Source: Staphylothermus marinus F1
GTDB taxonomy: Archaea > Thermoproteota > Thermoprotei_A > Sulfolobales > Desulfurococcaceae
Assembly (NCBI RefSeq): GCF_000015945.1
Contig: NC_009033.1
Span: 1,320,001 to 1,352,000 of the forward strand
Direction of reading: 5' to 3'
DNA: 32,000 bases
In this document: positions 5,060 to 18,629 of the stretch, one piece after another
Position numbering within the stretch: position 1 is the stretch's first letter
Layout of the letters: the number at the start of each line of letters is the position of its first letter
Notes under the pieces: generated by a model
What the model saw: the letters and a program-made list of their open reading frames with translations, nothing else
Told to the model about the DNA's origin: nothing
Databases searched by the model: none
Translations under genes and position numbers: made by a program

Positions 5060-5767
5060 TTGAAAAAATCTTTTATGGATAATAAGGAACTATATGTGAT
5101 GATGAGCATGAAGCAATTATATTTCGCTTTATTAAAGCATAGAGAAATATCAATAAAGGATCTATCAGAGCTTCTCGGATTAGATGAAAGAATATTATAT
5201 AGTAAGATCAAGGAGTTGGGAAGATATGTTACCATAGTTAATAATAAGATCAAACTAAATGATCCATTATTATTCGCTATTCAACTTCTCAAACAGGGTT
5301 ATTCATTTAAAGATGTCACTAAATATCTTGATTGGCACGATTTCGAGAAGTTTTCGGCTGAAATACTTGGTGCGCACAAGTATATTGTTAAAACTAATTT
5401 TCGCTTGACAAAACCTGTTAGGCTAGAAATAGATGTTATCGGCATAGATCTTGGTAGTGGTAGAGGAATTTTTATCGATTGTAAACACTGGATTCATGGT
5501 ATTAGTAGGAAAACACTCATGGAGATCGCAGAGAAACATATTCTGCGGATTAAGAAGTTTATAAAATACTATAGTTGGGCTAAGACGAAATGGACATATT
5601 TCAGATATCTTAGAAAAATAGTCCCTATAATAGTGACTTTAACAACGCCTTCTATTCGAATGCATGAAAACGTATTAATTGTTTCTATTCAGGAACTAAA
5701 TTCCACGCTTCTAGACTTAAATATGGTTCTAGATCTATTCGGAATAGAACCTATACCTGTATATTAA
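5060..5767 (+). CDS. Winged-HTH protein with Mrr-like PD-(D/E)xK nuclease domain
   Basis: 235 aa. The N-terminal HTH-like segment is ISIKDLSELLGLDERILYSKIKELG. The Mrr_cat-like core is DWHDFEKFSAEILGAHKY...LEIDVIG...IFIDCKHW (D125 ... D140-x-K142, nt 5432-5485). TTG start is uncertain; ATG alternatives lie just downstream. Confidence 0.55.
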   Translation: MKKSFMDNKELYVMMSMKQLYFALLKHREISIKDLSELLGLDERILYSKIKELGRYVTIVNNKIKLNDPLLFAIQLLKQGYSFKDVTKYLDWHDFEKFSAEILGAHKYIVKTNFRLTKPVRLEIDVIGIDLGSGRGIFIDCKHWIHGISRKTLMEIAEKHILRIKKFIKYYSWAKTKWTYFRYLRKIVPIIVTLTTPSIRMHENVLIVSIQELNSTLLDLNMVLDLFGIEPIPVY

Positions 5768-6813: not shown

Positions 6814-9060
6814 TTGGGTGAAAATGTGTTATCACGTAGGATAATCGGTGTCCTCATTCTCCTAGCCGTTATCCTATCCACCTCTATATCTCTAATATAC
6901 GCTAATACACCGACTAATGAGCATACGAGATATGCTGAGAAGGTTGTTATAATAAGTATTGATGCGGCTAGAGCTGATTATACATATATGCTCGCCTCGG
7001 AGGGTATATTGCCGGGATTCAAGAGAATAATCGATGAAGGAGTATATGCAAAAGGCATGATTGTAAGTTTTCCATCAGCAACCGCGGTATCGCACGCCGT
7101 TATATCTACCGGGGCAGAGCCAGGTATAACTGGTATAACAGGCAACAGTATTCATTTGCCGGGAACAAAGATCTATAAAACGGTGTCAGGATTCGACGGC
7201 AGAAACCTTCTTGCCGAACCAATTTGGGTAACACTTGACCGTCAGGGTCTAACAGCCGTTGTAGCCGCTTTTCCACAGAGCACTCCATCTGCTTGGGCCG
7301 ACAAAGTCAATCGATCAATATTGTTCAATCCATATGATAGCTTTATATGGCCAATATCATATTCAAAACTATATACTACGAATAGTAGTGTGAGCAGGGC
7401 ATCTATCATAGACTTAGTCGAAGCAACTAATTGGACCAACACTGGAATAATCGGTAATGTGACATCGGCATATGAATCATCCATATATATGGGCGATGAT
7501 ACATGGTATCTATATCTAGCGGACCTCGATGGAGACGGTTACCCCGATAAGTTAGCAATTGTGCCGCATGAAAAAGATCTAAGCAAAGCAGTAACTATTC
7601 TTTCAGAGGGAGAGTGGAGCGAACCAATAAATACTACAATAACATATAATGGGAACACATATATTGTAGCACCATTATTCAAAGCGATCAATCTAAGCTT
7701 AACAAATTTCAGATTATATAGGAGCCTCATGAGACCTTTCAACGACGACTGGTTTAACAATGAAAACGTAGCATGGGATGTTTGGAACAACGTCGTTGTT
7801 AGAACCGGTATGATAACCGATGGTGACTGGTATGCTCTTGTAAATGGATGGATAGATACTGATACATATATGGAAACGGTTCACTATGCAAACGAGTTCT
7901 TCAAAGAATTTACACTATATCTTCTCAACCACACTGATTGGGACCTGTTAATGGGTTATACACCGATAGTGGATAATGTATATCATGAGTTTCTAGGACT
8001 AGTTGATCCTAGTATGCCCTACTATAATCCATCCGAGGCCGAAAAGTATTGGAATTACATAGTGGAAGCCCATAAATGGGCAGATGAAATTGTAAAGGCA
8101 GTGCTAGATAATGTTGATCTAAACAATACTGTTGTAATGGTAGTCTCTGATCACGGACAGTGGCCTGTGAAGAAACTAGTATATATCAACTCGATTCTCG
8201 AGCAGGCAGGACTTATCAAAGTAGATGATCAAGGCCATATACTATGGAATGAAACAGTGGCATACTATGTTGGATACAATCAGATATTCGTCAATCTCCA
8301 GGGACGTGAAGATGGCGGAATTGTTCCACCCAATGAATACAATGATGTTGTAAACAAGATTATAACGGCTCTTTCAAATGTGAAAGATCCAGATACCGGT
8401 GAACCCGTATTTAGCTTAATAATGACAAAGGATGAAGCTAAGTCTCTGGGTCTATATGGTGATCGAGTAGGCGACGTAGTATTTAGTCTAAGACCGGGAT
8501 ATGCTGCATGGGGAGGCTTAAAAGTAGGTACAATCTTTGAAGATGCTGTACCGCTTAAGACAGTGGTGGGATGGCATTCTGACCTCCCATATTATCCACA
8601 ACTCCACGCAATCTTTGGCGCAATAGGGGCAAACATTGAACATGGTGAATTAGGCTATATACATTCAACAAGCATAGCACCTACTATTACGTATCTTCTA
8701 GGAATAGATCCTCCGCTCAACGCTACAGGAGACAGACTACCCATAGTAAAACCTTTAACGAAAACTGTTACACAAACCATAACATCAACCTCCACTGTTA
8801 CAACAACCAATACTGTGACACAGACCGTTGAGAAAACAGAGACCCAAACCATAACAGAGACTAAAACACATACAACTACAGTGACCGAAACAGCAACACA
8901 GACTACAACACGGATCGAAACTACAACTAAAACAATAACGACAACAGCTTATAATACCACAACTGTCAAGACAATCGATGTAGGTGCAACCACAATATAT
9001 GCCATAATAGCATTGATTGTGGGCCTAGCTATTGGAATGCTAATTTATAGAAGAAAATAG
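6814..9060 (+). CDS. Secreted type I phosphodiesterase / nucleotide pyrophosphatase (alkaline phosphatase superfamily) with Thr-rich stalk and C-terminal TM anchor
   Basis: 748 aa with an N-terminal signal/TM segment (IIGVLILLAVILSTSISLIYA). Metal-site motifs are VVIISIDAARADY, FPSATAVSHAVISTG and VVSDHGQ. A C-terminal Thr-rich linker precedes a TM helix (IYAIIALIVGLAIGMLIY) and an RRK tail. TTG start; GTG at 6826 is possible. Confidence 0.7.
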   Translation: MGENVLSRRIIGVLILLAVILSTSISLIYANTPTNEHTRYAEKVVIISIDAARADYTYMLASEGILPGFKRIIDEGVYAKGMIVSFPSATAVSHAVISTGAEPGITGITGNSIHLPGTKIYKTVSGFDGRNLLAEPIWVTLDRQGLTAVVAAFPQSTPSAWADKVNRSILFNPYDSFIWPISYSKLYTTNSSVSRASIIDLVEATNWTNTGIIGNVTSAYESSIYMGDDTWYLYLADLDGDGYPDKLAIVPHEKDLSKAVTILSEGEWSEPINTTITYNGNTYIVAPLFKAINLSLTNFRLYRSLMRPFNDDWFNNENVAWDVWNNVVVRTGMITDGDWYALVNGWIDTDTYMETVHYANEFFKEFTLYLLNHTDWDLLMGYTPIVDNVYHEFLGLVDPSMPYYNPSEAEKYWNYIVEAHKWADEIVKAVLDNVDLNNTVVMVVSDHGQWPVKKLVYINSILEQAGLIKVDDQGHILWNETVAYYVGYNQIFVNLQGREDGGIVPPNEYNDVVNKIITALSNVKDPDTGEPVFSLIMTKDEAKSLGLYGDRVGDVVFSLRPGYAAWGGLKVGTIFEDAVPLKTVVGWHSDLPYYPQLHAIFGAIGANIEHGELGYIHSTSIAPTITYLLGIDPPLNATGDRLPIVKPLTKTVTQTITSTSTVTTTNTVTQTVEKTETQTITETKTHTTTVTETATQTTTRIETTTKTITTTAYNTTTVKTIDVGATTIYAIIALIVGLAIGMLIYRRK
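8755..8975 (+). repeat. Low-complexity Thr-rich coding tract (T-x-T periodicity) inside the phosphodiesterase gene
   Basis: Translates to TKTVTQTITSTSTVTTTNTVTQTVEKTETQTITETKTHTTTVTETATQTTTRIETTTKTITTTAYNTTTVKT. The nucleotide sequence is dominated by ACA/ACC/ACT/ACG codons. Confidence 0.85.
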
Positions 9061-11157: not shown

Positions 11158-11422
11158 TAGACTATTTACTTATTTGGATACTATGATTGTTATTGGAAAT
11201 TATGAAAACTATTATTGTTTTGATGGATTAGTGGAGATCTCTTTTATAAACCCTCCTAACGTAACGGTTAATGGAATGCGGATGAAGGGCTCTAGGTGGT
11301 CTTGGTGGAGCCCCGATAACCCCCTCAATGAAGAGAGTGAAAACCCGATCCAAGAGGGGGAAGCCCCTGCAAATACTCATAACATCCAAAATAACCAAAA
11401 AATAAAGCACAGACAACCACAC
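11158..11422 (+). repeat. GC-rich dispersed element, copy A (unclassified; candidate sRNA gene or MITE)
   Basis: Homologous by direct reading to 13915-14176 (+) and 18447-18629 (-). Shared parts are the 5' block tagactatttacttatttggatactatgattgtt, tttataaa at 11243-11250, and the GC-rich core 11281-11370 with hairpins gggctc/gagccc and ccccctc/gaggggg. Confidence 0.8.
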
Positions 11423-11681
11423 CATGCTGGGAGGCTTTGAGCCCTGCTCCTATAACCCCTCACTACATCACTTAAATACGAACCACCATAAAAGTTTCCG
11501 TTAATCAACATAAACTACACTATCCATTACATGGATTTGTAGTGGCTATGTTTTATTTTATTATGGTATGGTCTTTGTTATGGTTGGTTATTTGTAATTA
11601 TGGAGAATAAATTCTTTTATGTGGAAACTGGGTTTACTATAACAATATAAAATAATGTATTGATAGGATAATCTCTAATGT

Positions 11682-13019
11682 ATGGACAGGATGTTTGGTG
11701 GGGATGTTATGGTTGAAAATGTAGTATGGTATCATATTGAGGATGTTTTGTCGGATGATTTTATTGGTAAAAAAGTTTGTGTTAGAGGCTGGATTTATCG
11801 TAGAAGTGTTGTTGGTGGGAAAGCTTTTGTTAGGGTGAGGGGTTCAACTGGAATTATACAAGTTGTTGTTGATCGGGAGAAGTGTGGGGAAGAAATAGTT
11901 AGGATACTTAAGGATATTGGTTTAGAAGCTAGTGTTATGACGTGTGGTGAGCTCGTTAAACAACCACGTGCTCCAGGCGGATACGAGGTTCACGCTGATT
12001 GGTTCAGGATAGTTGGTTATAGTAGAGATTTCCCGATCAAGGGTGGTGAGGGGATAGATTATTTATTAGATAATAGGCATCTCTGGATTAGAAGCCGAAA
12101 ACTAACAGAGATCATGAAGATCAAGCACAGTGTTCTCAAAGCTGGGAGAGAATACTTTGTAGAGAATGATTGGTGGGAAGTAACACCCCCAATACTGACA
12201 GCATCAGCTGTTGAGGGAGGAGCTACACTATTCCCCGTTAAATACTTTGATAAAACAGCTTATCTAAGCCAGAGCGCTCAACTATATCTTGAAGCCCTAA
12301 TATATAGTCTTGAAAAAGTATGGAGCCTCACAACTAGTTTTAGAGCGGAAAAATCACGTACACGTAGACACTTAGCAGAATACTGGCATTTAGAAGCAGA
12401 GGCTGCATGGTATAATATGGAGGATATGATGAGGGTAGCTGAAGAACTAGTAGCGTATATTGTTCAATACATTCTAGAACATAATAAGAGACAATTAGAG
12501 ATTCTAGGCAGAGACCTTAAAATATTGAAGAACTCCGTTGAACCACCATATCCTAGGATACGATATGATGAAGCAATAGAGATTCTACAGAAGAAAGGTG
12601 TTAATATTGAGTGGGGAGATGATCTGGGTGCTGATGAGGAGAGAGTTCTTACAATGGAGTTTGACAAACCATTCTTCATAACTCATTTCCCCAAGGAGAT
12701 TAAAAGCTTCTATATGAAGCTTGATCCAGAAAATGAAAAACTAGCTCTAGGATTCGATCTCTTAGCGCCGGAGGGATATGGTGAAATTATAGGTGGGAGC
12801 GAGCGTGAAGACGACTATAATAAATTGCTTAACAGAATAATTGAGCAAGGATATGATCCTGAAGACTACAAATGGTATCTTGATCTCAGAAAATATGGAT
12901 CAGTACCCCATAGTGGTTTCGGCTTAGGAATCGAGAGACTAGTTATGTGGATAGCTGGGCTAGACCATATTAGAGACGCTACACCATTCCCGAGATTTAG
13001 AGGTAGAATTTATCCATAA
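11682..13019 (+). CDS. asnS: Asparaginyl-tRNA synthetase (class IIb)
   Basis: The N-terminal OB anticodon-binding segment is VCVRGWIYRRSVVGGKAFVRVRG. Motif 2 is FRAEKSRTRRHLAEYWHLEAE (AsnRS-type HLAE-W-E) and motif 3 is GFGLGIERLVMWIAGLDHIRDATPFPR. The likely true start is ATG 11709 (MVENVVWYH), preceded by GGTGGGG. Confidence 0.75.
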   Translation: MDRMFGGDVMVENVVWYHIEDVLSDDFIGKKVCVRGWIYRRSVVGGKAFVRVRGSTGIIQVVVDREKCGEEIVRILKDIGLEASVMTCGELVKQPRAPGGYEVHADWFRIVGYSRDFPIKGGEGIDYLLDNRHLWIRSRKLTEIMKIKHSVLKAGREYFVENDWWEVTPPILTASAVEGGATLFPVKYFDKTAYLSQSAQLYLEALIYSLEKVWSLTTSFRAEKSRTRRHLAEYWHLEAEAAWYNMEDMMRVAEELVAYIVQYILEHNKRQLEILGRDLKILKNSVEPPYPRIRYDEAIEILQKKGVNIEWGDDLGADEERVLTMEFDKPFFITHFPKEIKSFYMKLDPENEKLALGFDLLAPEGYGEIIGGSEREDDYNKLLNRIIEQGYDPEDYKWYLDLRKYGSVPHSGFGLGIERLVMWIAGLDHIRDATPFPRFRGRIYP

Positions 13020-13022
13020 AAG

Positions 13023-13718
13023 GTGCTTTTATTGTCTCAGAGTATTGGAGAAGAAATAATAAGTATTCTCCGCAAACACTACAAGTTAAACCTGAAAGAA
13101 TTCATTGCTCCAAATATTCGTGATAAATCATTGTTTGAATACATTATTGGAGTTATGCTTAGCCAGAATACAAGCGATAAAAACGCTATTCGAGCCTATC
13201 TCAACCTTAAAAAGATATATGGAGAAATAACGCCCGAGAAAATCCTCTCTACATCCATAGAAAAATTAGTTGAAGCATTAAAACCTGCTGGAATGTATAA
13301 TCAAAGAGCTCAACGCATAGTCGAGTTAGCCAAAATATTTACAGAGAGAAACGTTAAGGAGGAGCTTAGAAAACTAGTAGAGGAGGGGAAACTTAGAGAA
13401 GCTAGAAAATACCTTGTCAACCTGCCAGGTGTTGGTTTAAAAACAGCTGATGTAGTCTTATTAATGTATTATAAACAACCAGTATTCCCTGTAGACACAC
13501 ATATTCGTAGAGTATCGAAGAGACTGGGATATATTGAAAAGGACAATTATGAAACCATATCCCGTTGGTGGATGAAACAATTAAAACCAAACGAATACCT
13601 AGAAGCACACCTCCTCCTAATAACGCATGGTAGAAAAACATGTAAAGCAAGAAAACCATTATGCGATAAATGTCCCATAAACAAGTATTGTAAATACTAT
13701 TGCAAAACAATCATATAA
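13023..13718 (+). CDS. nth: Endonuclease III / HhH-GPD DNA glycosylase with 4Fe-4S cluster
   Basis: 231 aa. The HhH motif is LPGVGLKTADVVLL, followed by VDTHIRRVSKRLG. The C-terminal Cys cluster is CKARKPLCDKCPINKYC. GTG start lies 3 nt after the asnS stop. Confidence 0.8.
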   Translation: MLLLSQSIGEEIISILRKHYKLNLKEFIAPNIRDKSLFEYIIGVMLSQNTSDKNAIRAYLNLKKIYGEITPEKILSTSIEKLVEALKPAGMYNQRAQRIVELAKIFTERNVKEELRKLVEEGKLREARKYLVNLPGVGLKTADVVLLMYYKQPVFPVDTHIRRVSKRLGYIEKDNYETISRWWMKQLKPNEYLEAHLLLITHGRKTCKARKPLCDKCPINKYCKYYCKTII

Positions 13719-13914
13719 TACTTCATTCTTAATACTATGCATCCTACTGATTATAATACAATGAATCAAACCAATATTGTATTGATAAGTTTGCCTAGAG
13801 AGCTTGTAAGTGGATTCAATAAGAGTATAATGATTACTGTTCTCAATAATAATACTGAGATACCTTTACCATATATTTATGCTCCCACTAAGAAGGAACA
13901 CATAAACTTCACAG

Positions 13915-14176
13915 TAGACTATTTGCTTATTTGGATATTATGGTTGTTTTGGAAATTGTGGAAATCATGATTGTTTTAATTATTGGGTTCGCTTTATAAA
14001 TCCTCACTAATATAATGGTTAATGGTTTAAAACTGCAGATGAAGGGCTCAAAGTGGTCTGTGTGGAGCCCCGATAGCCCCCTCAATGAAGGAGTGAAGCC
14101 CCAACCCAAGAGGGGGAAGCCCGTGCAGATATCCAAAATTTCCAAAACAACCAAAAAATAAAGCACGGGCAACCAC
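13915..14176 (+). repeat. GC-rich dispersed element, copy B (most intact copy)
   Basis: Same family as 11158-11422. tttataaa is at 13993-14000. Hairpins are gggctc/gagccc (14044-14049/14065-14070), ccccctc/gaggggg (14077-14083/14110-14116) and gcccgtgc/gcacgggc (14119-14126/14163-14170). A 21-nt inverted repeat pairs 13941-13961 with 14133-14153. Confidence 0.8.
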
Positions 14177-14206
14177 TATACATATAATGGTAGAAAATTA
14201 TCACAT

Positions 14207-14467
14207 ATGAGTTCTGTGGAAGCAAACAACTTGTTGAAAAACATATTAGATGGCGGGATTTCTACTAGTTCCGTAAAACCTGTAAGCATAGATTACAGCT
14301 TTCCTGTTAAGAATAAATCTTATGGAATACTTGTAGTTTTACCAAAGAAAAACATGAAACCCTCAAATTCCAGCTACAATGAATGGTTTAATGAAGCACT
14401 GAGACAAGGATTTACTCATAGATTAATATATAGATTCGACAACTATATTTTCTTATGTTTACTATAA
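14207..14467 (+). CDS. Small hypothetical protein
   Basis: 86-aa ORF with an ATG start, no recognisable motifs, and adjacent to repeat copy B. Coding status is uncertain. Confidence 0.3.
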   Translation: MSSVEANNLLKNILDGGISTSSVKPVSIDYSFPVKNKSYGILVVLPKKNMKPSNSSYNEWFNEALRQGFTHRLIYRFDNYIFLCLL

Positions 14468-14587
14468 ATTTAATGAATCCAGTGGTTCAGGATATGAATT
14501 ACCGGTTCTGAGATCCTCTAATAGATCATACGTATTCGATGCATATAGCTTGAAAAATCTATATCCATTATTGTTGTTAGGTTTTTA

Positions 14588-14812
14588 ATGGCTCCTATTA
14601 TATGTTATTGCCAAGTAGAAGCTGCAAATAATGCTTCAATCACATATTCTAATAGAGTGGTTATCTTTAATGCATTGATTTCATACTTATTATTGCTTGG
14701 CTTACCGGCTCTTACAATATTCTTTTCAACTTTACCGATCAGGATCTATATTGGTGAAAAATATTCTGGGAATAACTCTTTCTACAAACAAATATTTGTA
14801 GGAGAGAACTAG
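14588..14812 (+). CDS. Hypothetical membrane protein fragment (possible 5' part of a frameshifted gene)
   Basis: 74-aa ORF with one TM-like segment (ALISYLLLLGLPALTIFFSTL). The downstream ORF frame is already open before this ORF ends (see finding). Confidence 0.3.
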   Translation: MAPIICYCQVEAANNASITYSNRVVIFNALISYLLLLGLPALTIFFSTLPIRIYIGEKYSGNNSFYKQIFVGEN

Positions 14813-14877
14813 TTCTATTCTATATTACCTTCACTATAGTTTATCTTGTTTCTGCAATTGTCTTCTATATTATTAGC

Positions 14878-15300
14878 TTGATCCTTGATCCTTTTACTTA
14901 TGTAGAGACATACGCTATAGTATCCAATATTACAGTAGTCGGTCTTTTACTGTTTTCAGCTTATGTAAGCATGTATTCTGTCTGGGCTGTTTTAATAAAG
15001 AATAGGAGAAAAGCTTTTATGATCGGTTTATCATCTACTATAGTTGTAAGCATTATATCTCTTTTCGTAATGTTTACTATTAATGTATTATTTGGTAGAT
15101 TTTACTTTTTTAAATGTGATCCTGCTAGTTATGGAATCGAGGTTTTAAACCCGTATACTCAGAGTATTGCAGATGCTAACAGCATATATCTTTCACGTCT
15201 AGTAGCCAATATGTTGTGGATAATATTGTTTTTGCAGAGATATTATTATGAACTAGAATCTCAGCGTATCCCATTAGATCTGCTTAAATCTCTCGTTTAA
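14878..15300 (+). CDS. Hypothetical polytopic membrane protein
   Basis: 140 aa with about 4 hydrophobic helices and a TTG start. The reading frame is open upstream from 14776 and encodes a further TM-like segment without a start codon. Confidence 0.45.
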   Translation: MILDPFTYVETYAIVSNITVVGLLLFSAYVSMYSVWAVLIKNRRKAFMIGLSSTIVVSIISLFVMFTINVLFGRFYFFKCDPASYGIEVLNPYTQSIADANSIYLSRLVANMLWIILFLQRYYYELESQRIPLDLLKSLV

Positions 15301-16257
15301 GTATATATTTCCTCTCCAATGGTATCCTAGTGCTTCCCAGTAGCCATCAACATATTTATTTGTGAAAATTATTTTTTCCACCCATTTCGCACTCTTCCAT
15401 CCATAGAGGTGTGGAATAATTATTCTTGCCGGAAAACCTTGCTCAAGCGGTAATGGTTTACCATTCATTTTCAAGGCTAGAATCGAATTATTAAATACGA
15501 AGTCTTCGTAGGGGATAATTGTTGTGTATCCATCAAGAGATACTATATAAACCCATTTCACTCCAGGCTTAATTCTAGCTTCTTCAGCAAACCTTCTCAG
15601 AGGAACCCCTGTCCATTCAACATCTTTCACACTCCACCCTGTAACGCAGTGGAAATCTGTTTTAATAGTAATGTGTTCCATTCTAAGAAGGTCTTCATAC
15701 TTGTATCTAAGCTCTTTTTCTACTTCTCCAGTTATCTTCAAAGACCACTCATTTATTCTTATATAGGGTTGTCCAAGGATACGGTATATTATGAAGCTAG
15801 GAATAAATCTTTGACCAGGCGGTGTTTTCCCATATTCTTTAACTGATTTCTCAATAACTGTTTGTTTAGTAAATAAAGTGTTCAGCTTCTCAATTTCTGG
15901 AAGACTTGTCTTAGTTTTTTCTATATATTTTTCTCCAATAGTGAAAACTATCATTATTAACTTATTCCTCCTTGTTACCGCTCTTATACCAATATATCCT
16001 TTCCTATCCAAGCAGTTCAAATGATAACTATAAATAATAAATTCATCATTTATCGGTTCGTTGTCTACGAATTCTAAACTGCACTCATCATTGTCTAATG
16101 TGAAGATGCGGGTTGAATACTCCCATATTAATGGTTTTAGGATAGAATAATTTATTTCATCGTATTCCTTGTTGATAAAGCATTGGATTACCTTCACAAT
16201 ACCCTTCTTATATAAGCCTGGAGAACTTGTGGATATGCAATTCAAATATTTCACCAA
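15274..16257 (-). CDS. Molybdopterin-dependent oxidoreductase (sulfite oxidase / YedY-MsrP-like Mo-co domain) with unknown N-terminal extension
   Basis: 327 aa. The C-terminal ~190 aa carry PPGQRFIPSF...W.LKITGEVE...DFHCVTGWSVKDVEWTGVPLRRF...GFPARIIIPHLYGWKSAKWV, typical of the Oxidored_molyb domain. The N-terminal ~140 aa are unrecognised. No signal peptide seen. Confidence 0.7.
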   Translation of the reverse strand: MVKYLNCISTSSPGLYKKGIVKVIQCFINKEYDEINYSILKPLIWEYSTRIFTLDNDECSLEFVDNEPINDEFIIYSYHLNCLDRKGYIGIRAVTRRNKLIMIVFTIGEKYIEKTKTSLPEIEKLNTLFTKQTVIEKSVKEYGKTPPGQRFIPSFIIYRILGQPYIRINEWSLKITGEVEKELRYKYEDLLRMEHITIKTDFHCVTGWSVKDVEWTGVPLRRFAEEARIKPGVKWVYIVSLDGYTTIIPYEDFVFNNSILALKMNGKPLPLEQGFPARIIIPHLYGWKSAKWVEKIIFTNKYVDGYWEALGYHWRGNIYLNERFKQI

Positions 16258-16315
16258 AATAAATACTATACTATTAGGAATATTAAGGTAATTAGAGTAT
16301 TTTTAGTGTTTATAG

Positions 16316-17551
16316 TTGAAACACCGTATAGTTATGAATTATTATATGGGTGAATATAAGAGGATGATGAGGAGTTTAAAAGAACTAGGAAGTGAGAAGA
16401 AGACAACTCTGCTCTCCCTATATATTTACACATTTATCCGTGGCGCTGGTAGAGCTAGTTATATGTTCTTGTATCCTTTATTCCTCATAAGCATAGGGTA
16501 CTCAACGAAGGATTTGGGTTCGATAGCGACTATTGCTTCTGCTCTTATCATACTTATACTCCCAATTGTAGGCCATCTTGTTGATCTTGGATGGGCAATT
16601 GAAGTATTGTTTTTGTCTGGTTTATCTATGTCTTTAGCATTGATATTACCGGTTGTTTATCCGAGTTTTTACTCATTAGTAATATCTTATGCATTAAATA
16701 TGCTCAGCTTATATCTATGGTCTCCCTCGAGAAATAAGATCATAGGTACTATTATTCCCCAGATATTGCTTGGTAGAGTTTATAGTTTATTTGTGATCTT
16801 GTTTAACTCGTCTAGAACCGTAACCCCCTTTATACTGGGCAGATTAACTGAGACAATTGGTTATGGATACTTGATGATTTGGATGGGGATTTTTAGTCTT
16901 GCAGGAACAATTATAGTCTATGTGATTCTTATTCTTCGACAAAATATGTTTTCACGTACATCTATTGGAAGAGCCGATATTATTAATAGCTATAAGGTTA
17001 TGTTCATGTTTGATAAAAGCGTAATAACTATTGTATTATTTGCTTTAATTGATAGTTTTGCTTGGAGGCTTTGGTTTCCATTATTGAATGCTTATTTAAA
17101 AGAATATAGGGGGCTTGCTGATCCTATTATTGGTGATTATAACACTGTTATCGGGTTATCTATGTTGGTGACTTCATATTTTGCAGGCGTTATTACGGAT
17201 AAGATTAAGCCTGTAAAATCCCTTATAACATATGAGTTGATAGGAGCGGCTGGCATTCTCTTAATCAATCTTCCTTATCCATATATTCATTTATCAGCAT
17301 TACTTATAGGATTCAGCATTGCTTTCTGGGTTTCAGCATATAATACATTAGTCACGATCATGTATGGTATCGAGAAGATAGGTAGATTAAGAGTATTAAC
17401 TGATTCTGCAAGAAATATTTCATCCATACCAGCACCGCAGATAGGAGGTTATTTAATGTCTATTGATCCACTAATAACATTTATTATGAGCGCACTTCTC
17501 ATGTTAATTGCTATTATGCCTCTGAGAAAAATAAGAGTGAAAACTAGTTAG
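16316..17551 (+). CDS. MFS-type transporter
   Basis: 411 aa with about 12 hydrophobic segments in two halves and a central basic loop. TTG start is uncertain (the MRSLKELG Met is also possible). Confidence 0.65.
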   Translation: MKHRIVMNYYMGEYKRMMRSLKELGSEKKTTLLSLYIYTFIRGAGRASYMFLYPLFLISIGYSTKDLGSIATIASALIILILPIVGHLVDLGWAIEVLFLSGLSMSLALILPVVYPSFYSLVISYALNMLSLYLWSPSRNKIIGTIIPQILLGRVYSLFVILFNSSRTVTPFILGRLTETIGYGYLMIWMGIFSLAGTIIVYVILILRQNMFSRTSIGRADIINSYKVMFMFDKSVITIVLFALIDSFAWRLWFPLLNAYLKEYRGLADPIIGDYNTVIGLSMLVTSYFAGVITDKIKPVKSLITYELIGAAGILLINLPYPYIHLSALLIGFSIAFWVSAYNTLVTIMYGIEKIGRLRVLTDSARNISSIPAPQIGGYLMSIDPLITFIMSALLMLIAIMPLRKIRVKTS

Positions 17552-17569
17552 TAACTGTGGTGCTACTAG

Positions 17570-18430
17570 TTGACGAGAGGTAAGCTTCTTAAAAAACTAG
17601 CTATAAAGGTGTTGGGCGAGGAAAAGGCGAGGAAAATATGGGGTAGAATAGAGATTATTGGGGATATAGCTATTATACGTGTACCATTTGATATTGATCC
17701 CTACGAACTGAAACCATTAGCTGAAACAATAGTTGAGGAGCTAAAATATGTTAAGAGTGTCTGGGCAGGATTACCAGGTGTTAAGGGGCCTTATAGGCTT
17801 AGACCGTTTATCCACTTAGCTGGTGAAGATAGAAGTGAAACAATATATAAAGAGCATGGATGCTTATTCAAAATAGACATCACTAAGGTATATGTATCAC
17901 CTACTCTCAACTACGAACATAAAAGAATAGCACAACTAGTTAAGCCTGGAGAAATAATTACAAACATGTTCGCTGGTGCAGGTTTTTTCAGCATAATCAT
18001 TGCTCGCTATTCTAAGCCGAAAAAAGTATATAGTATAGATATAAATCCACATGCTTACCGTTACATGGTTGAAAATATAAGGCTTAACAAAGTTGAAGAC
18101 ATAGTTGTGCCTCTTATGGGAGATGCTGCTAAGGTGATCGAAGAAAAACTAGTTAATACAAGTGATAGAGTATTAATGCCTTATCCCGAACTAGCTCTTG
18201 ACTACTTGGTTTATGCATTAAAAGCTTTAAGGAATAGGAGAGGCTGGATACATATCTACCTACACATTGTAGCAGATAAGAGTTCTTCTCCACTAGATAT
18301 TGCTGAAAACATTTTAAAAAATAAGCTTCAAGATTTAAGTGTTAAAAAATTCGATATTATGAATAAGAGGATTGTTAGAACGATTGGGCCGAGAAAATAC
18401 CAAGTAGTATTAGATGTTCATATATATTAG
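17570..18430 (+). CDS. Trm5/Taw2-family class I SAM-dependent tRNA modification enzyme (m1G37 / wyosine pathway)
   Basis: 286 aa. The SAM-binding motif is ITNMFAGAGFFSI, followed by SIDINPHAYRYMVENIRLNKVED. Size and layout resemble archaeal Taw2/Trm5 without the D1 domain. The precise activity cannot be assigned. Confidence 0.7.
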   Translation: MTRGKLLKKLAIKVLGEEKARKIWGRIEIIGDIAIIRVPFDIDPYELKPLAETIVEELKYVKSVWAGLPGVKGPYRLRPFIHLAGEDRSETIYKEHGCLFKIDITKVYVSPTLNYEHKRIAQLVKPGEIITNMFAGAGFFSIIIARYSKPKKVYSIDINPHAYRYMVENIRLNKVEDIVVPLMGDAAKVIEEKLVNTSDRVLMPYPELALDYLVYALKALRNRRGWIHIYLHIVADKSSSPLDIAENILKNKLQDLSVKKFDIMNKRIVRTIGPRKYQVVLDVHIY

Positions 18431-18446
18431 CATCACCAACTCCTAG

Positions 18447-18629
18447 TGTGTTTGCCCATGCTTTATTATTTGCAGGGGCTTCCCCCTCTTGGGTCGGGTT
18501 TTTCACTCTCTTCATCGTGGGGGTTATTGGGGCTCCAAGGAGAAACTCTCACCCCTCAACCCCCACCAATAAAAAGAACACATAAACACCACAAAAACAA
18601 CCATAATATCCAAACAAGCGAATAGGCTC
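18447..18629 (-). repeat. GC-rich dispersed element, copy C (inverted, internally shortened)
   Basis: The reverse complement aligns with copies A and B: cctattcgcttgtttggatattatggttg ... ggagccccaataacccccacgatgaagagagtgaaaaacccgacccaagagggggaagcccctgcaaataataaagcatgggcaaacac. It fills the convergent spacer between 17570..18430 and 18651..19226. Confidence 0.8.

Follow-up and report, generated by a model that had tools for sequence, protein, structure and literature searches.

The GC-rich repeats in the stretch of Staphylothermus marinus F1 DNA analysed here (32,000 nt, hereafter the window) are very probably copies of a ~260-nt non-autonomous transposable element (MITE), which was reported in 2009 and probably derives from TnpB-only elements of the IS200/IS605-IS607 kind. 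Its mobility is supported by polymorphism between strains, a clean insertion, a motif in the flanks and absence from related species. Beyond the earlier report, we describe an exact insertion junction, one more disrupted gene, a MITE-mediated inversion in F1 and the iteron architecture of the element ends. The three copies in the window are the following.

Copy A: positions 11166 to 11425, plus strand; ~260 nt, delimited by alignments and by comparison with copies X and Y of other strains (see below).
Copy B: positions 13923 to 14179, plus strand; complete element of 257 nt, delimited by the empty site in strain contig L055 and the uninterrupted gene in strain contig L062.
Copy C: positions 18443 to 18621, minus strand; 179 nt, truncated, without the TATA region and the 26-nt 3' arm, delimited by alignments.

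The initial annotation had proposed that three homologous stretches form one dispersed, non-coding family, and alignments, motif counts against shuffles and a profile search all bear this out. The 5' block, the core and the 3' block can all be aligned between the copies, with pairwise identities of 73-81%. The core 17-mer CCAAGAGGGGGAAGCCC occurs in the window exactly three times, at the expected places, where shuffled sequence would give 0.01 occurrences; the 5'-block motif likewise occurs exactly three times at the expected places (0.00 expected from shuffles). An nhmmer profile built from copies A, B and C found no further copy in the 32-kb window. No other 90-nt stretch of the window is as rich in G+C as the three cores, which reach 0.59-0.60 against a window mean of 0.354, so the exceptional composition first noticed by eye is real. 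The extent of the element needed correction. The homologous stretches stood, and the 5' boundary did not: an empty site in another strain already contains the first 8 nt of the 5' block (TAGACTAT), which therefore belong to the target or flank rather than to the element.

Short, non-coding and multi-copy, with three copies in 32 kb and no conserved ORF, the family has the general character of a MITE. A protein-coding reading, in which the element would encode a small protein (e.g. MKGSRWSWWSPDNPLNE...), could be entertained from the mechanical ORFs that cross the copies and from the ~19 codons after an ATG that copies A and B have in common. However, as the initial annotation had noted, these ORFs show no conservation at the protein level: A and B differ by a 1-nt indel that shifts the frame, and copy C has no start codon. 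In addition, a concatenated six-frame query against 5.8 billion proteins returned no homologue at E<=1 and no TnpB tail. The protein-coding reading was rejected because of the frame shift between copies, and we give it practically no chance of being correct.

The family had been called unrecognised in the initial annotation, which does not hold. The window encodes PCNA and PhoH proteins that match ABN70456 and ABN70459 of S. marinus F1 exactly, and the F1 genome paper describes a ~260-nt repeat in 14 copies, some of them truncated, flanked by inverted repeats and termed probable MITEs (Anderson et al. 2009, BMC Genomics 10:145; PMC2678158). An existing MITE description, which the initial annotation had itself set against its small-RNA proposal, is thus at hand. 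The features shared with the published repeats are the organism, the ~260-nt length, truncated variants, flanking inverted repeats, the non-coding character and gene-disrupting insertions. Because the organism, the length (260 and 257 nt), the truncated copy C (179 nt) and the inverted arms all match, we take the family as already known; copies A, B and C almost certainly belong to it, an identification made from organism, size, inverted repeats and truncation pattern rather than from published coordinates. According to the same paper, the repeats resemble the DNA upstream of four transposase ORFs (Smar_0083, 0767, 1150 and 1546), which are the four near-identical single-ORF members (orfB, TnpB-type) among the five IS607-family elements of F1, and the only orfA in the genome, Smar_0846, is truncated (PMC2678158). 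The paper names two MITE-disrupted genes, Smar_0733 and Smar_0327/0328, and the gene split by copy B is not among them. Relative to what it contains, the present analysis adds the junctions, the iterons, the strain polymorphism, the inversion and an RNA hypothesis. Our literature search found nothing beyond the genome paper that links Staphylothermus to MITEs or TnpB.

Evidence for mobility comes from copy B. Two contigs assembled from public read sets, L055 and L062, carry the same genes as F1 at ~99% identity, and copy B is absent from both. The empty site in L055 reads CACAGTAGACTAT|ACATATAATGG, while F1 reads ...GTAGACTAT[ TTGCTTATTTGG...GCAACCACTAT ]ACATAT... at this position. Copy B is therefore a clean, F1-specific insertion of 257 nt, each junction of which carries ACTAT (13918-13922 and 14175-14179). 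The boundaries of the polymorphism are precise, in that the seamless empty site restores an ORF in L055 and L062. The interrupted gene is as follows.

Split gene: positions 13737 to 14467, plus strand; a gene of unknown function that encodes 182 aa in other strains, with copy B lying between ...FTVDY and TYNGRKL...

Intact counterparts are found in L055 (15364-15912, minus strand) and L062 (2449-2997), and the orthologue in a related genome, L060, encodes 139 aa. A Pfam search of the 182-aa gene matched no family. Two further lesions of the gene in F1, a +1 frameshift through one additional T near 14455 and the loss of 68 nt near 14520, fit decay after insertion rather than precise excision in the other strains. 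Logan contigs from several public read sets (L056, L057, L058, L059 and L063-L065) end precisely within the element, as is to be expected of a repeat present in several copies.

A second consequence of the family is a rearrangement between copies A and C.

Inverted segment: positions 11376 to 18466; ~7.1 kb, inverted in F1 relative to other S. marinus strains and related species, as judged by blastn of L055 against the window and by gene order.
GC-rich core: copy A, 11280 to 11375 (plus strand); copy B, 14037-14131; copy C, 18467-18562 (minus strand); the best-conserved part of the family.

The inverted block contains the genes for AsnRS, EndoIII, a molybdopterin oxidoreductase, an MFS protein and TRM5/TYW2. 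In L055, in L062 and in the outgroups L060 and L061, the gene order is GNAT > AsnRS > EndoIII ... MFS > TRM5 >< PhoH, and F1 has the segment from copy A to copy C in the opposite orientation. The un-inverted strains reveal the parental copies. In L055 and L062, a copy between PhoH and TRM5, copy X, combines the left part and core of A with the right end of C; in L062, a copy upstream of AsnRS, copy Y, combines a C-type core with the right end of A, including the 3' arm. From the composition of X and Y it follows that the F1 copies are reciprocal chimeras: copy A took its left part and core from the ancestral copy X on the PhoH side and its right part and 3' arm from the ancestral copy Y, and copy C took the left part and core of Y and the right end of X. 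The ~7.1-kb inversion in F1 is the result of homologous recombination between two inverted copies within the identical core stretch CCAAGAGGGGGAAGCCCCTGCAAAT.

Two other features of the neighbourhood were observed. In L061, a JGI relative, a MazE/PIN toxin-antitoxin pair lies between AsnRS and EndoIII (7244-7877), which is absent from S. marinus. Directly to the right of copy A, at 11423-11475 of the window, is a GC-rich stretch, catgctgggaggctttgagccctgctcctataacccctcac, that L062 shares and that the corresponding spacer of L060 and L061 lacks; its resemblance to part of the core (GAGCCC...ATAACCCC.TCA) is loose and not significant.

Comparison of the insertion sites points to a target preference. 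The left flanks of copies A and B (TAGACTAT) and of copy C (GAGCCTAT) all end in CTAT. At the three independent sites, the left flanks are ACTAT, ACTAT and CCTAT and the right ends ACTAT, ACTAG and ACCAT; the 5-nt junction repeat is exact only in copy B, with X having ACTAT/ACTAG and Y having CCTAT/ACCAT. Together, the flank and right-end motifs point to insertion beside a specific short motif. The related Staphylothermus-like genomes L060 and L061 (~77-80% identity) have no element at the orthologous sites, and none was detected in them by profile search. Wider searches were also negative: scans of JGI metagenomes with the core and 5'-block patterns and of IMG/VR viral sequences gave 0 matches, and blastn against phage and plasmid collections gave no match. 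A search of genome contigs with CCAAGAGGGGGAAGCCC returned 54 loci, all of them 17-25-nt chance matches, and S. marinus F1 itself was not among the matches.

The internal organization is most readily read from the complete copy B.

5' arm of copy B: positions 13930 to 13965, plus strand; four tandem 9-nt iterons, TTTGGATAT TATGGTTGT TTTGGAAAT TGTGGAAAT, with TGG at 13932, 13941, 13950 and 13959.
3' arm of copy B: positions 14129 to 14155, plus strand; three inverted 9-nt iterons, ATATCCAAA ATTTCCAAA ACAACCAAA, complementary to the 5' arm, with CCA at 14133, 14142 and 14151.
TATA-like box: positions 11243 to 11250 in copy A and 13993-14000 in copy B; TTTATAAA (tttataaa), found by sequence and deleted in copy C.
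Hairpin P3 of copy B: positions 14119 to 14170, plus strand; GCCCGTGC (14119-14126) pairs with GCACGGGC (14163-14170), enclosing the 3' arm.

The counterparts in copy A lie at ~11169-11208 (5' arm) and ~11380-11402 (3' arm); the 3' arm is missing in copies X and C. In copy B the arms (13935-13966 and 14128-14159) form an inverted repeat of 32 nt with 88% complementarity and a duplex energy of -35.2 kcal/mol. This inverted repeat is subterminal and asymmetric: it starts ~3 nt from the left junction and stops 9-14 nt short of the right junction. Between the arms lie, in order, the TATA-like box, a variable spacer and the conserved core; the box claimed in the initial annotation is indeed present in copies A and B, and ~150-155 nt separate a point ~25 nt downstream of it from the right end in these two copies. 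The core forms hairpins P1 (GGGCTC/GAGCCC) and P2 (CCCCCTC/GAGGGGG), whose coordinates in copy A (11287-11292/11308-11313 and 11320-11326/11354-11360) had been given correctly. P3 is followed by AACCACTAT (AACCAC(TAT)) up to the right junction of copy B. In B its stem pairs at 8/8 positions; X and C retain 7/8, and the stem of A and Y is degenerate. In X and C, a 26-nt loop with the 3' arm is missing from P3, leaving a compact hairpin. Both large indels coincide exactly with hairpin loops: X is 9 nt shorter in the loop of P1, and X and C are both 26 nt shorter in that of P3. A GC-rich hairpin is found near the right end only (P3), and the left end consists of AT-rich iterons with no comparable hairpin.

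All three F1 copies read GGGGGAAGCCC (window 11354-11367, 14110-14122 and 18476-18488), where the copies of non-F1 strains read GGGGGAAAGCCCC (L055 11334-11346; L062 61-75 and ~7010-7025). Between the TATA-like box and P1, copy X is set apart from copy A of F1 by >12 substitutions and by the deletion of 9 nt in a loop, with flanks that are 99.3% identical. The GGGGGAAAGCCCC/GGGGGAAGCCC split and the differences between X and A suggest gene conversion among copies or a hypervariable spacer. A TGG-rich, arm-like stretch upstream of the AsnRS start (11577-11620) was considered as a fourth, degenerate copy, given a local alignment score of 31 against a shuffled maximum of 28. This candidate was rejected because a comparable TGG-rich stretch precedes AsnRS in a relative that lacks the element (L061 ~5640-5680). 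The stretch probably belongs to the native promoter, where a related host factor may bind.

Crenarchaeota are known to harbour short non-autonomous elements. The Sulfolobus MITEs SM1-SM4, reported by Redder and colleagues in 2001, are said to carry the terminal inverted repeats and target duplications of DDE-type IS elements, both of which our element lacks. A classical DDE-type MITE (terminal inverted repeats and target-site duplication) was set aside because the inverted repeats here are subterminal and asymmetric.

The ends agree with the description of the IS607 family (Chen et al. 2018, eLife; PMC6188088), in which the tips carry no inverted repeats, an imperfect inverted repeat lies at a different distance from each end, short motifs recur as direct repeats and no target duplication is evident. 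The element has a corresponding subterminal imperfect inverted repeat built of 9-nt iterons, of which the left arm has four and the right arm three. However, IS607 exchange occurs at a GG dinucleotide (PMC6188088), whereas the junction motif here is (A/C)CTAT. The 5 nt shared at the copy B junctions are compatible with exchange at an identical dinucleotide as in IS607, although they are more than 2 nt and come from one empty site. Also unlike IS607, the element has neither tnpA nor tnpB, and the serine TnpA of F1 is reported as truncated.

A second set of similarities leads to IS200/IS605 and its protein-less derivatives with ωRNAs, the PATEs (Karvelis 2021, PMC8612924; Meers 2023, PMC10055086). 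As in these, the insertion lies 3' of a short motif without true duplication, and a related motif is found at the right end (TAM/TEM logic), at three independent sites; there is a GC-rich hairpin near the right end, a possible scaffold of ~150 nt and TnpB encoded elsewhere in the genome. On the other hand, the long iteron arms are lacking in IS200/IS605 ends, and no Y1 TnpA is reported in the F1 genome. Since the GC-rich hairpin is missing at the left end, the element falls outside the definition of IS200/IS605.

For the MITE favoured here, movement would require a transposase acting in trans, which may bind the iterons and move the element without a classical target duplication. This transposase would be a serine TnpA of the IS607 type or, less likely, a Y1 TnpA, and according to the genome paper it is no longer intact in F1 (PMC2678158). 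The lack of an intact TnpA in F1 counts against the model, given that copy B is F1-specific. The similarity to tnpB upstream DNA is a published statement (PMC2678158). Further points against the model are that the inverted repeats are subterminal and that the 5-nt repeat is exact only in B. The TATA-like box could be the former tnpB promoter, inherited with the tnpB upstream region. A plain MITE model also leaves unexplained why an internal core should be the most conserved and most GC-rich part of the element; together with the right-end hairpin, this core may be a recognition structure or a guide-RNA (ωRNA) scaffold.

GC-rich islands in the genomes of AT-rich hyperthermophiles usually correspond to structured RNA. 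Klein and colleagues reportedly used GC-content screens in 2002 in connection with the high-GC small RNAs of such organisms. The GC-rich island is common to these RNAs and our element, and no sequence or Rfam match connects the element to any described RNA. As the initial annotation had supposed, known families offer no explanation: Rfam gave no match on the whole window at the gathering threshold, and at E<=10 its matches, to models of eukaryotic lncRNA, miRNA or bacterial sRNA, did not rise above chance level.

The proposal made there, that the copies are stand-alone structured sRNA genes, each with its own TATA promoter and spread by duplication unrelated to transposition, could draw on the GC-rich core with three hairpins conserved in sequence and on the TATA-like box upstream in copies A and B, and with the known RNA families excluded such an RNA would be new. 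Our results do not support it. When the copies were laid on an explicit P1/P2/P3/arm structure, 86% of cells paired and 0/38 pairs changed on both sides, in a test that has almost no power because there are only three independent lineages (X, Y and B). The RNAalifold covariation term was -0.38 kcal/mol, and the fold z-scores were mostly weak: -0.85, 0.0 and -1.65 for cores, with one at -4.1, and -1.9 for the whole of copy B. Further points against stand-alone genes are that copy B sits inside a protein-coding gene and is missing from the 99%-identical strains, that none of the orthologous sites in relatives contains the element, that iteron arms and a target-site motif are typical of mobile DNA, that copy C lacks the promoter region, and that the genome paper already presents the repeat as a MITE (PMC2678158). 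We regard this reading as quite improbable. For an sRNA as such, the data neither support nor exclude the idea, and a transcribed structured RNA carried by the mobile element is possible.

Such an RNA is easiest to imagine as a TnpB guide. A TnpB reRNA/ωRNA ends at the right transposon boundary, continuing into a guide derived from the flank. By analogy, the MITE might carry a functional ωRNA module, which would refine the explanation preferred here and not replace it; we consider this possible, though on balance doubtful. Transcription would start ~25 nt downstream of the TATA-like box and pass through the core and the right-end hairpin into the flank, giving a scaffold of ~150 nt followed by a guide from the flank; with these guides, the four solo TnpB proteins would act in trans to cut the CTAT-flanked empty site, with retention or homing of the element as the outcome. 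The length is suitable, since the ~150-155 nt in copies A and B is the size of the ISDra2 reRNA. The core is the most conserved part and comprises the three most GC-rich 90-nt stretches of a hyperthermophile window with 35% GC, the large indels sit in hairpin loops, and a GC-rich hairpin with a short linker adjoins the right junction. The CTAT of the left flank resembles the TTTAT TAM of solo-tnpB elements in Sulfolobus islandicus, and bacterial protein-less PATEs (IS605 derivatives, Geobacillus) often encode ωRNAs that are used in trans. Four near-identical solo TnpB genes that could serve as partners are reported for F1 in the genome paper (PMC2678158). However, the absence of compensatory changes, the mostly unremarkable z-scores and the lack of an Rfam family at E<=10 weigh against this proposal as well. 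Moreover, the similarity reported in the paper is upstream of tnpB and not downstream (PMC2678158), no protein tail similar to the core came out of the six-frame search, and the TATA region is missing from copy C. In its full form, the proposal is that each of the 14 copies may consist of a promoter and an ωRNA scaffold, a former tnpB promoter fused to the GC-rich core, with a guide against its own CTAT-flanked empty site that the four solo TnpB genes use in trans; we put this forward tentatively, as an idea with less than an even chance of being right.

What has been found again here is a repeat family of 2009, and the main value of the analysis is a correct annotation, in which the GC-rich islands should not figure as novel sRNA genes. 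Three modest, concrete additions are the MITE-mediated 7.1-kb inversion in the reference strain F1, a strain-specific insertion that kills a gene, and the end architecture, whose 9-nt iterons and CTAT junction motif provide a handle on how the element moves. If the core is indeed a TnpB guide-RNA scaffold, these copies would be compact natural trans-acting ωRNA modules operating at ~90 °C, of interest for mining thermostable TnpB editors, and the family would be the first case of an ωRNA on a protein-less element from a hyperthermophilic crenarchaeon. The fact that conservation is highest in the internal core, and not at the termini, would then be accounted for as well.
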